From contig NZ_LN831039.1 in NCBI RefSeq assembly GCF_001457595.1, forward strand, positions 510,001 through 542,000: 32,000 nt of DNA, in the 5' to 3' direction. Both the position numbers and the translations under genes were made by a program. Below are positions 17,857-20,942 of the stretch, one piece after another. Origin of the DNA: Mycolicibacterium smegmatis (GTDB lineage Bacteria > Actinomycetota > Actinomycetes > Mycobacteriales > Mycobacteriaceae). Each line of letters opens with the position of its first letter. Positions within the stretch are counted from its first letter, which is position 1. The notes beneath the pieces were generated by a model. The model was not told where the DNA came from and searched no databases. It was given only the letters and a program-made list of their open reading frames with translations.

Positions 17857-19644
17857 ATGTGCGGGATCATCGCATGCCGCACGAACCGGCCAGCCGCGGA
17901 CTATCTCCGCGTCGGCCTGCGCAGGCTGGAGTACCGGGGTTACGACTCGGTGGGGGTTGCACTACAGACGGAGGCCGGCACCGTGGCCCGGTTGCGGACG
18001 ACCTCGCGTATCAGTGCACTGGAGTCGCTGCTCGACGAGTGGTCGGGACCGACCTTCGACGGAGTGGGCATCGGCCATACGCGGTGGGCAACACACGGCG
18101 CGGTCACGGAGACCAATGCGCACCCACACAGTGACTGCGGTGGTCGGCTCAGCCTGGTGCACAACGGGATCATCGAGAACGCAACGCAGTTGCGCACCGA
18201 GTTGAGCGCCGCCGGTCACAGGTTCACCTCGACCGTCGACAGCGAAGTGCTGTGCCATCTCATCGAAGACGAGCGGTCGAACGGCGCGGACCTGACCTGC
18301 GCAGTGCAGAACGCACTGGCGAAGGCGAGGGGCTCGTGGGCGCTGGCCGTTCTTGAACACGGCACCGGACGCATCGCCGTCGCGGCATCGGGTTCTCCTC
18401 TCGTCGTGGCGAACACGTCCCACGGTGACTTCGCGACGAGTGACGTCGCGGCCATCGCGGATTGGGCCGACGAGTTCCGTGTCCTCGAAGACGGTGATGT
18501 CGTGGAACTTTCCGTCGACGGCCGGTGGACCAGGGCGGGAATCCTCTCGGCGCCGCCGCCTGCGACACGGTGCACGCTGCGCACCCGTGACGTGGAACTC
18601 GACGGTTACACCGACTTCATGGCCAAAGAGATCGACGAACAACCCGAAGCGGTCGCGAGGGTCCTCGATTCGATGGCAGGCCGGATCGCCACCGGCGCTC
18701 TGTGGCGCGACTTCGGCCTGCCGTCTTTCGAACGGCTCCGTGTGATCGGCTGTGGGACTTCGCTCAACGCTGGCACCGTGATCGGCAACCTCGCGCGTGA
18801 CCTGGGCGGGATTCCGATGGCCACGACGGTGGCGAGTGAAGCGGCCATGGAGGTTTTCGATGCGGGACAGCTGTGGCTGGCCATCAGCCAGTCGGGCGAG
18901 ACCGCGGACGTACTGCGCGCGGTGGAGTCACCGGCGGTGAGCGAATCGTCACTGGTGGCGCTCACCAACAGCGGACACTCGACACTGGCACGCCTGGCCG
19001 ACGCGGTCGTGGGATGTGCGGCCGGCCCCGAAATCGGTGTGGCCGCCACGAAAACATTCGTCTGCCAGGTTGTTTCGGGGAGTGCGCTGATGATCTCCGC
19101 GCTCGTCGCGATGCGGCGGATCTCCGCGGCATCGGCCTCCCGGCTGGTCGACGATCTTCGGCGTCTGCCGGAGCAGCTCGATGCCGCGACCGTGACCGCC
19201 AAGAGCGTCGTACCGCCGATCGCCGAGGAACTCGCCACGGCAGGAGGATTCCTGTTCATCGCTCGCGGACTGGGCCTGCCGTATGCATCCGAAGGTGCGC
19301 TCAAACTCAAGGAACTCACCTACCGGTGGGTCGAGCACTACCCGGCCGGCGAACTGAAACACGGTCCGCTCGCGCTGGTCGGCAACGGAACTCCGGTGAT
19401 CGTCGTCAGCACAGGTGATCCGAAGATCGAAAGCAGCATCGCCGAGATACAGGCCCGCGGCGGACACGTCATCTCGATCGGCTCGGCGGGAAGCACGGTC
19501 GCAGTCACCGACGGGCCGAACGCGCCATGGGGTCCGATCACGGCCACCGTCGCCCTGCAGATCCTTGCACGGACCATGGCTCTGACGTTGGGCCGGGACG
19601 TCGACAAACCACGCAATCTCGCGAAGTCGGTGACGGTGGAATGA
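17857..19644 (+). CDS. glmS: Glutamine--fructose-6-phosphate aminotransferase (isomerising), operon-embedded copy
   Basis: The start is trimmed to give an MCGI N-terminus with the catalytic Cys at position 2. RLEYRGYDSVGVA and GHTRWATHG are present, followed by two SIS domains. The canonical C-terminus LAKSVTVE is present. Confidence 0.9.
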   Translation: MCGIIACRTNRPAADYLRVGLRRLEYRGYDSVGVALQTEAGTVARLRTTSRISALESLLDEWSGPTFDGVGIGHTRWATHGAVTETNAHPHSDCGGRLSLVHNGIIENATQLRTELSAAGHRFTSTVDSEVLCHLIEDERSNGADLTCAVQNALAKARGSWALAVLEHGTGRIAVAASGSPLVVANTSHGDFATSDVAAIADWADEFRVLEDGDVVELSVDGRWTRAGILSAPPPATRCTLRTRDVELDGYTDFMAKEIDEQPEAVARVLDSMAGRIATGALWRDFGLPSFERLRVIGCGTSLNAGTVIGNLARDLGGIPMATTVASEAAMEVFDAGQLWLAISQSGETADVLRAVESPAVSESSLVALTNSGHSTLARLADAVVGCAAGPEIGVAATKTFVCQVVSGSALMISALVAMRRISAASASRLVDDLRRLPEQLDAATVTAKSVVPPIAEELATAGGFLFIARGLGLPYASEGALKLKELTYRWVEHYPAGELKHGPLALVGNGTPVIVVSTGDPKIESSIAEIQARGGHVISIGSAGSTVAVTDGPNAPWGPITATVALQILARTMALTLGRDVDKPRNLAKSVTVE

Positions 19645-20942
19645 AAACCCGAACATCCGGAACATTCGCGGACTCTCAGCAGGAAAACGGGGAAGGAAGA
19701 CTGTTGATCACACTGCAACGCACGACGATTGCCGTCGTGGGACTCGGTTATGTGGGACTGCCCACCGCGCTGGCGTTCGCGGAGATGGGAGCAGAGATCA
19801 TCGGCTGTGACCTCAGCGAGGACCGGCTGGCGAACATCAAGACCGGAGACGTCGACATGCTGCCCCGGGACCGGACACGGCTTCTCCGACAGCTCGATTC
19901 GTTCAAGCTGACCACCGAGCCCAGTGCGATCGGAGTGGCCGACGCGGTCGTGGTGTGCGTCCCGACCCCGGTCGACCCGCATCAGTCCCCGGATCTGCGG
20001 GCGCTGACCGCAGCATGCGCCAACGTGGTGCGGTACGCGACGAAGGGACAACTCCTCGTTCTCACCTCGACGACATACGTGGGGTGCACACACGAGATGC
20101 TCGTCGAACCACTGCAAGCTGCGGGGTTCACGGTCGGCAAGGACATTTTCGTCGCGTTCAGTCCCGAACGCATCGATCCGGGAGTGAAGGATCACGCGCC
20201 GGAGCGGACGCCTCGCGTCGTCGGTGGTGTCACCCCGGCGTGCACGGCCCGCGCCGCAGCCCTGCTGAGGCATACCGCGAGTTCCGTGCACACCGTCTCT
20301 TCTCCCGAGTCCGCGGAGATGACCAAGTTGGTCGAGAACTCGTTCCGTGCGGTCAACATCGCTCTGGCCAACGAGTTCTCGGAAGTAGCCCGCGAACTGA
20401 GCGTCGACGTCATGGAGGTCATCGACGCGGCGGCGACCAAACCGTACGGGTTCATGCCGTTCTATCCGGGCCCGGGCGTCGGCGGCCACTGCATACCGTG
20501 CGATCCGCACTATCTCCTGTGGCAGTTGCGGGCCCGCCGATTCGACTCGCCCCTGATGCGGACAGCGATGACATGCATCGCCGCACGCCCACGCGACGTC
20601 GTGTCGCGGGCCCGGGAGATGCTGGCCGAGCGAGGGAAGCCCACGCAGGGCGCGCGTGTCCTGGTGGTCGGTGTCACGTACAAGCCGGGTGTCGCCGATC
20701 TGCGTGAGTCACCGGCACTGGCGATCATCGACGATCTCACCGCTGCCGGAGCCGTCGTCTCGTTCACCGACCCGCTGGTGCCCATGCTGCGGACGCCACG
20801 GGCCGGAACGCTCACCAATCACCGCTCGCCGGAACACGATGAGTGGGACCTGGTGCTGGTGCACCATTGGGCAGAAGAGCTCAGGGACTGGGTGTCGGCC
20901 CAGCCTGTGGTGCTCGACACCACATTCGGTCGGCGAGGCTGA
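19641..20942 (+). CDS. Nucleotide-sugar dehydrogenase of the WbpA/WbpO/WecC/TviB (UDP-N-acetylhexosamine) branch
   Basis: The ATG overlaps the glmS stop (ATGA at 19641-19644). Motifs are [47 protein letters not shown] and [30 protein letters not shown]. The Ugd-type motifs (PEFLREG, GFGGSC.PKD) are absent. Confidence 0.85.
   Translation: [433 protein letters not shown]

Follow-up and report, generated by a model that had tools for sequence, protein, structure and literature searches.

When a sugar dehydrogenase gene stands beside a gene for a hyaluronan-synthase-like glycosyltransferase, which acidic sugar does the pair put into a polymer? The question arises for a 32,000-nucleotide stretch of the Mycolicibacterium smegmatis genome, the whole of which we call the window, where positions 19641-20942 of the forward strand encode a nucleotide-sugar 6-dehydrogenase directly upstream of a membrane glycosyltransferase of family 2 (GT2) resembling hyaluronan synthase (HAS) and NodC. 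A preliminary description of this DNA had argued from motifs that the dehydrogenase is of a WbpA/WecC/TviB type acting on N-acetylhexosamines (HexNAc), and not of the UDP-glucose-oxidising Ugd type. The analyses presented here point the same way: the gene probably encodes an NAD-dependent UDP-N-acetylglucosamine (UDP-GlcNAc) 6-dehydrogenase (EC 1.1.1.136) of the WbpA type, so that the adjacent synthase would probably build an acidic amino-sugar polymer rather than hyaluronan. The family and clade membership of the enzyme, its diagnostic residues and its gene linkage are established, as is the lack of an epimerase.

A dehydrogenase of the N-acetylhexosamine type

The gene and its diagnostic elements are the following.

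19641-20942, + strand: nucleotide-sugar 6-dehydrogenase, 433 residues from ATG 19641 (412 from TTG 19704), assigned by TIGR03026, three Pfam domains and the tree
19740-19769, + strand: NAD-binding GxGYxG motif, reading GLGYVG where Ugd-type enzymes read GTGY(V/L)G
20157-20183, + strand: FSPERIDPG block with Arg177 (20169-20171) and Pro180 (20178-20180), which are Phe and Glu in UDP-glucose/GDP-mannose dehydrogenases (residue roles from PMC4794789)
20346-20348, + strand: Arg236, within ENSFR, equivalent to sugar-binding-site Arg211 of Cap5O; Leu in UDP-glucose dehydrogenases (UGDHs) and Ile in CalS8
20433-20522, + strand: catalytic block with Cys284 (20490-20492) and Cys287 (20499-20501), reading C-I-P-C in the motif alignment

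The reading frame runs without interruption for 433 residues to a TGA stop at 20940-20942. Its product scores 372 bits against the nucleotide-sugar dehydrogenase model TIGR03026 (E 3.6e-111, cut-off 190) and carries the N-terminal NAD-binding (PF03721), central (PF00984) and UDP-binding (PF03720) domains, each above its cut-off; judged by these scores, the match to the family is not due to chance. The order of the three domains, the GLGYVG motif and a GGHC motif with Cys284 make it a member of the superfamily of UDP-glucose/GDP-mannose dehydrogenases. The ATG at 19641 overlaps the stop codon of the preceding glmS gene (ATGA). Since the TTG at 19704 has a strong Shine-Dalgarno-like run, GGAAGGAAG, just upstream and yields the 412-residue form held in the public protein collection, and since homologs align only from about residue 25-30 onward, the true start is probably TTG 19704 rather than ATG 19641.

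Profile and structure searches rank the enzyme with dehydrogenases of N-acetylated sugars. Among NCBIfam models it scores 222 bits for WecC, 218 for archaeal WecC and 167 for TviB, and it misses the equivalog cut-offs of the Ugd-type models (AglM 138 of 670, TuaD 108 of 700 and E. coli-type Ugd 44 of 757). Its best matches in the PDB are Cap5O (185 bits) and the Pyrococcus horikoshii UDP-N-acetylmannosamine (UDP-ManNAc) dehydrogenase (179), followed by CalS8 (146) and a Methanosarcina mazei 'GalNAcA dehydrogenase' (111), with UDP-glucose dehydrogenases at or below 107 bits. In the JGI automated naming, many homologs 60-76% identical to it are called UDP-N-acetyl-D-glucosamine dehydrogenase. 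The genome, one contig of 6.98 Mb, holds four further members of the family, three of which score best on the TuaD/AglM models and one of which is AglM/GDP-mannose-dehydrogenase-like; Ugd-type enzymes are therefore available elsewhere, and the operon enzyme is of a different type.

We then turned to the positions that a group-entropy study lists as separating UDP-ManNAc dehydrogenases from UDP-glucose/GDP-mannose enzymes (PMC4794789). Aligned to them, the window's dehydrogenase has the HexNAc-type residue at four diagnostic positions (Arg177, Pro180, Arg236 and His283), where Ugd-type and GDP-mannose dehydrogenase (GMD) enzymes have Phe, Glu, Leu or His, and Ser or Tyr, respectively. The motif blocks quoted in the preliminary description are all present, in the listed segments 19740-19769, 20157-20183 and 20433-20522. 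The contrast that it drew with Ugd also holds, in that the aligned positions show (N/S)PEFLREG and G(F/Y)GG(G/S/Y)CLPKD both in E. coli Ugd and in the Ugd-type paralogs of this genome, and the UDP-glucose 6-dehydrogenase motifs (NPEFLREG, Leu at the Arg236 position, GG(S/G/Y)C-PKD) are absent from the window's enzyme.

CalS8 (PDB 4xr9), by its entry title a TDP-glucose dehydrogenase, is instructive here. In pairwise alignment it reads PERLAEG, TNWWI and GGSC where the window's enzyme has SPERIDPG, Arg236 and GGHC, so CalS8 appears to have reverted towards the glucose type at the diagnostic positions, whereas the window's enzyme has not; the marks of the CalS8/AtmS8 type (PERLAEG, no Arg at ENxFR, GGSC) are not found in it. 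As CalS8 is nonetheless the third-best PDB match, clade proximity alone is no proof of an N-acetylated substrate.

Within the HexNAc type, the blocks distinguish sub-families that the preliminary description had pooled. Its HexNAc assignment stands; its grouping of the WbpA, WbpO, WecC, Cap5O and TviB blocks does not, since the blocks are specifically WbpA-like and those of WecC/Cap5O and TviB-labelled proteins read differently. In Cap5O, the His242-x-Arg244 element is in contact with the substrate, and in the P. horikoshii complex Arg244 meets the oxygen of the N-acetyl group (PMC4794789). This element, within NKHPRV/NRHPRVNI of WecC/Cap5O, is replaced by Lys-Pro-Tyr within ATKPYGF of the window's enzyme. 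The motif table further gives CPERVLPG and NRHPRVNI for WecC/Cap5O, and TKWNF and PGL-VGGHCIG for TviB-labelled proteins, whereas the window's enzyme carries SPER-DPG, ENxFRxVNI and TKP[FY]GF..GGHC(I/L)PxDPxYLxW, so that its motifs appear WbpA-like rather than TviB-like. Wherever these blocks are readable among the nearest 150 representatives, they are SPER(I/V/E)DPG and TKP[FY]GF...GGHC(I/L)P.DP.YL.W. The marks of a UDP-ManNAc 6-dehydrogenase are missing, in that the WecC scores lie below cut-off, His242 and Arg244 are replaced, and the genome holds no PF02350 partner.

Phylogenetic placement

A phylogeny, which the preliminary description had proposed as a check, was built with proxy anchors. 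The 150 nearest relatives (38-75% identity, 280-456 bits) came from searching 1.84 billion representatives exhaustively, and a tree of 61 rows was inferred using IQ-TREE under LG+C20, with support given as ultrafast bootstrap/SH-aLRT (Shimodaira-Hasegawa-like approximate likelihood ratio test). The anchors were E. coli K-12 WecC and Ugd together with proxies chosen by annotation label or gene context. Plasmid records contributed Shigella sonnei WbgT (TviB-labelled, with an adjoining epimerase gene), a TviB-labelled Phaeobacter gene, Ralstonia EpsD (WecC-labelled, beside wecB) and a Rhizobium 'UDP-GlcNAc dehydrogenase'. The proxy for WbpA was P0188 (43% identical to the window's enzyme), whose gene is flanked on one side by a WecG-type transferase and on the other by a Gfo/Idh/MocA oxidoreductase and then a hexapeptide acetyltransferase, an order that corresponds, by gene content, to the WbpA-WbpB-WbpD arrangement.

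With the Ugd/GMD types as outgroup, the HexNAc superclade has support of 100/100, and WecC groups with EpsD at 100/100. A 54-row clade (99/96) unites the window's enzyme with P0188, the TviB-labelled pair, the Rhizobium gene and an actinobacterial sub-clade, and excludes E. coli WecC and Ralstonia EpsD; the actinobacterial sub-clade holding the window's enzyme is itself supported at 99/91. Constraining this sub-clade to join WecC costs 40.3 log-likelihood units (p-AU 0.039, approximately unbiased test). By this tree, the dehydrogenase lies in the predicted UDP-GlcNAc-oxidising WbpA/TviB clade, outside both the Ugd/HasB/TuaD type and the WecC/Cap5O clade. Four independent lines (model scores, PDB ranking, diagnostic residues and tree) thus agree on a HexNAc-type and not a Ugd-type enzyme, as the preliminary description had held.

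The actinobacterial sub-clade is large and without characterised members, and it has peculiarities of its own. Of the 92 rows of this sub-clade, 91 carry a second Cys at the third position past the catalytic one (C-I-P-C), compared with 1 of 91 other WbpA-like representatives, and 89 have Tyr in TKPYGF where Phe is usual, compared with 20 of 90 elsewhere. It is tempting to speculate that this C-x-x-C, which includes the nucleophile Cys284, acts as a redox switch, perhaps on precursor supply. Separately, many WbpA-like representatives are 600-1074 residues long (P0162, P0170, P0173, P0175, P0176, P0182, P0183 and others) and match the window's enzyme in at least two separate stretches, a pattern suggestive of inteins or fusions that interrupt the enzyme not far from its catalytic cysteine, around residue 285-290.

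The dehydrogenase is linked to a hyaluronan-synthase-like GT2

The dehydrogenase is the second gene of a tightly packed same-strand set, preceded by a regulator gene.

16690-17691, + strand: LuxR-type response regulator with GerE and Response_reg domains, upstream of the operon
17857-19644, + strand: dedicated GlmS paralog (glutamine--fructose-6-phosphate transaminase; TIGR01135 538 bits, cut-off 418), the third glmS-family gene in the genome
20945-22240, + strand: HAS- and NodC-like GT2 membrane synthase, with Pfam Chitin_synth_2 and GT2 domains
22237-23772, + strand: membrane-anchored NodB/PgaB-like polysaccharide deacetylase with an extra C-terminal domain (PF01522; PgaB N-terminal deacetylase model 108 bits, below cut-off)
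23782-24483, + strand: predicted lipoprotein that travels with the module, with no Pfam or NCBIfam match

The GlmS paralog begins MCGI, and its start must, on this reading, be the ATG at 17857, because Cys then becomes the first residue after removal of Met. In the PDB, the GT2 scores 112 bits against a chlorovirus HAS and 96 bits against Xenopus HAS1, ahead of chitin synthases (33 bits); among NCBIfam models NodC ranks first, with 197 bits, below the cut-off of 550. A second glycan locus of the same genome (L185; G000:C1:6046000-6064000, minus strand) is headed by paralogs of the regulator (73% identical) and of GlmS (76%). It continues with a short-chain dehydrogenase/reductase (SDR), a Bac_transf phosphoglycosyl transferase, a sugar nucleotidyltransferase, a Ugd-type dehydrogenase, an enzyme resembling glycosyltransferase family 28, C-methyltransferases and a PIG-L deacetylase. 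These paralogs imply that the 'regulator + GlmS' head has been duplicated and that its copies drive two distinct pathways, of which the lipid-linked one uses a Ugd-type dehydrogenase.

We then examined linkage in 80 loci from named genomes, all Actinomycetota, whose dehydrogenases are 54-69% identical to that of the window; the closest homologs come from Mycobacterium and Mycolicibacterium. The dehydrogenase has as neighbours a GT2 related to the window's in 42 loci, a deacetylase in 33, the lipoprotein (next to the deacetylase) in 28 and a GlmS paralog in 15. Orthologous forms of the GT2, 58-75% identical, occur in Mycobacterium, Rhodococcus, Smaragdicoccus, Pseudonocardia and one Arthrobacter, and divergent forms, about 24-42% identical, in Streptomyces, Kitasatospora, Actinoallomurus and others. 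Furthermore, of 151 sampled genomes of the same family, 14 have a dehydrogenase of this clade and 6 the HAS-like GT2, which lies immediately beside the clade dehydrogenase in all six and is never found without it. We had also considered linkage to glmS as an argument for a HexNAc substrate, but dropped it, as hyaluronan systems co-encode GFAT too.

The pairing extends to contigs filed as viral. At the end of a low-GC prophage (L110:1-8051, an IMG/VR contig of 36% G+C), tail proteins and an amidase lysin are followed by a HAS/chitin-synthase-like GT2 of 420 residues and then by a WbpA-like dehydrogenase that shares 40% identity with that of the window. The pair resembles a lysogenic-conversion cassette for a polymer of this kind. 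Several high-GC contigs also carry a dehydrogenase-GT2 pair. Another IMG/VR contig (L105, 66.7 kb, 59% G+C) holds the whole orthologous module at 6001-10905 (dehydrogenase 58%, GT2 60%, deacetylase 44% and lipoprotein 52% identical); although filed as viral, it may represent the flank of a prophage, or else an actinobacterial fragment filed in error. Three 42.6-kb cyanophage genomes with Aphanizomenon and Planktothrix hosts (ON073792.1, PP438404.1 and PP438434.1) encode a WbpA-like dehydrogenase 45% identical to that of the low-GC prophage, annotated in one of the three records as a GDP-mannose dehydrogenase. A scan of the viral contigs for the UNGD-CHS cluster of chloroviruses brought up other dehydrogenase-GT2 pairs instead, and no locus with a GT2 next door that could be recognised as chlorovirus.

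Configuration of the uronic acid

The preliminary description had taken the absence of an epimerase gene from the operon to favour the gluco configuration, and the wider survey bears this out. By Pfam, the operon genes include no SDR, 2-epimerase or nucleotidyltransferase. The 100%-complete genome contains no PF02350 UDP-GlcNAc 2-epimerase and hence no route to UDP-ManNAc. An SDR-family gene directly follows the dehydrogenase in 34 of the 80 related loci (SDR identities 29% to 100%), and none of these is of the GT2-deacetylase-lipoprotein type. Because the SDR-bearing sister loci are a separate locus type, the window's type seems to use the dehydrogenase product unmodified, which supports the gluco form, although an unlinked epimerase could still act.

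This third locus type (Microbacteriaceae, Prescottella, Nocardioidaceae and others; examples are L020, L042, L046, L047 from Prescottella, L051, L053, L055, L058, L071, L073 and L076) has the dehydrogenase and then the SDR, often with a gene resembling glycoside hydrolase family 18 chitinases, a GlmS paralog and a different GT2. Its SDR scores 176 bits for LegB, 150 for dTDP-glucose 4,6-dehydratase, 125 and 115 for UDP-xylose synthase/ArnA and 81 for TviC. We dropped the idea of a TviC-like 4-epimerase, given that the LegB, dehydratase and UDP-xylose synthase models score higher than TviC; the SDR may be a 4-epimerase or a decarboxylase.

Proposed pathway and alternatives

The substrate of the dehydrogenase, the use of its product by the synthase and the structure of the polymer are inferred, and we picture the pathway as follows. 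The co-transcribed GlmS paralog would raise hexosamine flux, with UDP-GlcNAc supplied by housekeeping enzymes. The dehydrogenase would oxidise C6 in two NAD-dependent steps, via a thiohemiacetal and thioester on Cys284, to give UDP-GlcNAcA, the UDP derivative of N-acetylglucosaminuronic acid. The HAS/NodC-like synthase would take this donor, most likely together with UDP-GlcNAc, to build and export an acidic polymer of beta-linked amino sugars, which the membrane-anchored NodB-type deacetylase would partly de-N-acetylate outside the cell.

Several points weigh against this pathway. The dehydrogenase attains no NCBIfam equivalog cut-off, the nearest scores being 222 of 459 bits for WecC, 218 of 750 for archaeal WecC and 167 of 592 for TviB (NF011729). 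NCBIfam contains no WbpA model, and on this score a missed TviB cut-off excludes a TviB ortholog and leaves room for membership in the wider WbpA/TviB group. Apart from E. coli WecC and Ugd, the anchors of the tree are proxies and not the assayed WbpA, TviB, WbpO, Cap5O and HasB. The rejection of the WecC grouping by the approximately unbiased test is marginal, and the tested group was chosen after the tree was seen. CalS8 shows that glucose-acting enzymes lie near the clade, and related enzymes may use other nucleotides, as in the GDP-GlcNAc pathway of PMC12983305. The sub-clade substitutions Cys287 and Tyr269 may affect specificity. Finally, glmS, a dehydrogenase and a HAS-like synthase also fit a true hyaluronan system, and among solved structures the GT2 comes closest to hyaluronan synthases.

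Of the alternatives, the one that survives best concerns the synthase. The enzyme would make UDP-GlcNAcA, but the synthase would polymerise GlcNAc only, into a chain like chitin or poly-N-acetylglucosamine (PNAG), with the uronic acid as primer, cap, side decoration or further-modified sugar. NodC and PgaC, the GT2's best NCBIfam matches, use only UDP-GlcNAc, and the deacetylase is PgaB-like. Nor do the synthase residues speak for a uronic-acid donor: the equivalents of Lys177 and Arg341 of the chlorovirus HAS are conserved, but they lie in the family-generic GKR and QxxRW motifs, and none of the residues examined discriminates. Such a role would, however, sit poorly with a HAS-like GT2 that is always directly downstream of the dehydrogenase (6/6 in the family sample), with an operon that encodes no second glycosyltransferase, and with the recurrence of the pairing with a second GT2 sub-family about 30% identical, in the low-GC prophage and in fungi and chloroviruses (PMC4059230). 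We consider it unlikely.

Slightly less likely still, in our estimate, is that the enzyme oxidises another N-acetylhexosamine nucleotide (UDP-ManNAc, UDP-N-acetylgalactosamine (UDP-GalNAc) or a non-UDP form), so that the uronic acid would not be gluco. UDP-GalNAc is said to have been the substrate first reported for WbpO. The top single model and PDB scores belong to UDP-ManNAc dehydrogenases, and unassigned SDR epimerases in the genome, for example in L185, could make UDP-GalNAc. This reading runs against the complete genome's lack of a PF02350 2-epimerase, the replacement of His242 and Arg244 of WecC/Cap5O by Lys and Tyr, and the exclusion of the WecC clade (99/96, p-AU 0.039); moreover, no epimerase or nucleotidyltransferase is present in the operon, and SDR-containing sister loci form a locus type apart.

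A shift of the enzyme to UDP-glucose or another glucose nucleotide, with the operon making a hyaluronan- or heparosan-like polymer of glucuronic acid (GlcA) and GlcNAc, would agree with the GT2's chlorovirus and Xenopus HAS relatives, the parallel with the chlorovirus HAS/UGDH/GFAT set (PMC12632751) and the third PDB rank of CalS8, a TDP-glucose dehydrogenase by the title of entry 4xr9, but is the least probable of the three, in view of the retained Arg236, Pro180 and GGHC, all three of which CalS8 and the UGDHs are without, the deep nesting of the enzyme in a clade that also holds WbpA-context and TviB-labelled proteins, and the three Ugd-type dehydrogenases already in the genome, one of them in a separate glycan locus.

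Comparison with known systems

WbpA and its pathway homologs (WbpA is cited in PMC4059230), compared here via homologs and the P0188 proxy, share with the window's enzyme the three-domain fold family, SPER-DPG, ENxFRxVNI and TKP[FY]GF..PGPGxGGHCIPxDPxYLxW. They also share a well-supported clade, the group (including P0188, with its WbpB- and WbpD-like flanks) being about 40-46% identical to the window's enzyme. They differ in gene context, as the window's gene is unlinked to WbpB, WbpE, WbpD and WbpI, which suggests that its product does not flow into 2,3-diacetamido sugars; its partner is a processive synthase. Two substitutions further set the sub-clade of the window's enzyme apart, Cys for Ile/Val at the third position past the catalytic Cys, and Tyr in TKPYGF.

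In Vi antigen synthesis (TviB/TviC) and in S. sonnei (WbgT), UDP-GlcNAc is converted to UDP-GlcNAcA and then to UDP-GalNAcA (PMC8760489). The predicted reaction of the window's enzyme is the same as the first of these, and the TviB-labelled proteins fall in its 54-row clade. It differs in scoring well short of the TviB cut-off, in lacking the TviB-type TKWNF and PGL-VGGHCIG, and in having no adjoining TviC-like epimerase gene. Vi antigen, moreover, is made by an enzyme of glycosyltransferase family 4 and exported by an ABC transporter, in contrast to the GT2 synthase of this locus. WecC and Cap5O give the top model and PDB scores and share with the window's enzyme Arg152, Pro155, Arg211, Val254 and His257 (Cap5O numbering); it nevertheless lies below their equivalog cut-offs, has His242/Arg244 replaced, falls in a separate clade (99/96) and comes from a genome with no WecB-type 2-epimerase.

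Hyaluronan systems (streptococcal hasABC, hasACB of Bacillus cereus pBCXO1, and chlorovirus HAS with UGDH and GFAT) share with the operon a class-I-HAS-like synthase and a sugar 6-dehydrogenase, and chloroviruses also the GlmS/GFAT gene. The HAS-like synthase is here combined with a dehydrogenase that falls outside the HasB/Ugd type, so the operon is not of the has kind; it also has no UDP-glucose pyrophosphorylase gene, and a deacetylase, absent from has operons, is present. If our reading is correct, a HAS-like gene with a neighbouring 'sugar dehydrogenase' should not be annotated as a hyaluronan operon by default. It would also follow that class-I-HAS/NodC-like synthases can take a 2-acetamido-uronic acid donor, and we know of no polymer chemistry with such an acid described for them. 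A first function would be assigned to a module widespread in Actinomycetota, and a new extracellular polysaccharide would join the envelope and biofilm repertoire of this standard laboratory mycobacterium.

A parallel in gene content comes from eukaryotes and their viruses. Clusters of UNGD (a UDP-GlcNAc 6-dehydrogenase of the WbpA type), a chitin/hyaluronan-synthase-like GT2 of the 'CV-class' and a polysaccharide deacetylase (CHS8/CDA1) have been described in fungi (Wangiella, Fusarium, Trichoderma) and in chloroviruses, where the product is unknown (PMC4059230, PMC5122149, PMC7053769). The preliminary description had called the product not described for this synthase class; this stands insofar as the fungal and chlorovirus product is still unknown, but the gene pairing itself had already been reported. 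At the level of gene clusters, the idea is therefore not wholly new. Our literature search brought up neither a paper on a GlcNAcA polymer made by a synthase nor one on the mycobacterial operon. The clusters follow the same three-gene logic as the window's operon, a likeness drawn from the literature and not from comparison of the gene sequences, and they differ in having eukaryotic or viral hosts, whereas the bacterial module also has genes for a GlmS paralog, a lipoprotein and a LuxR-type regulator. As a wider and more tentative proposal, which we put forward as conceivable rather than probable, many soil Actinomycetota could make a synthase-dependent polymer with 2-acetamido-2-deoxy-glucuronic acid in its backbone, for example alternating GlcNAc and GlcNAcA (an 'N-acetylated hyaluronan analogue'), trimmed by the NodB-type enzyme to a zwitterionic matrix polymer, with C-I-P-C perhaps gating precursor supply. 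Such a polymer would be the counterpart of the product of the fungal and chlorovirus UNGD-CHS8-CDA clusters, and the operon would offer a tractable bacterial model for these as yet unexplained systems.

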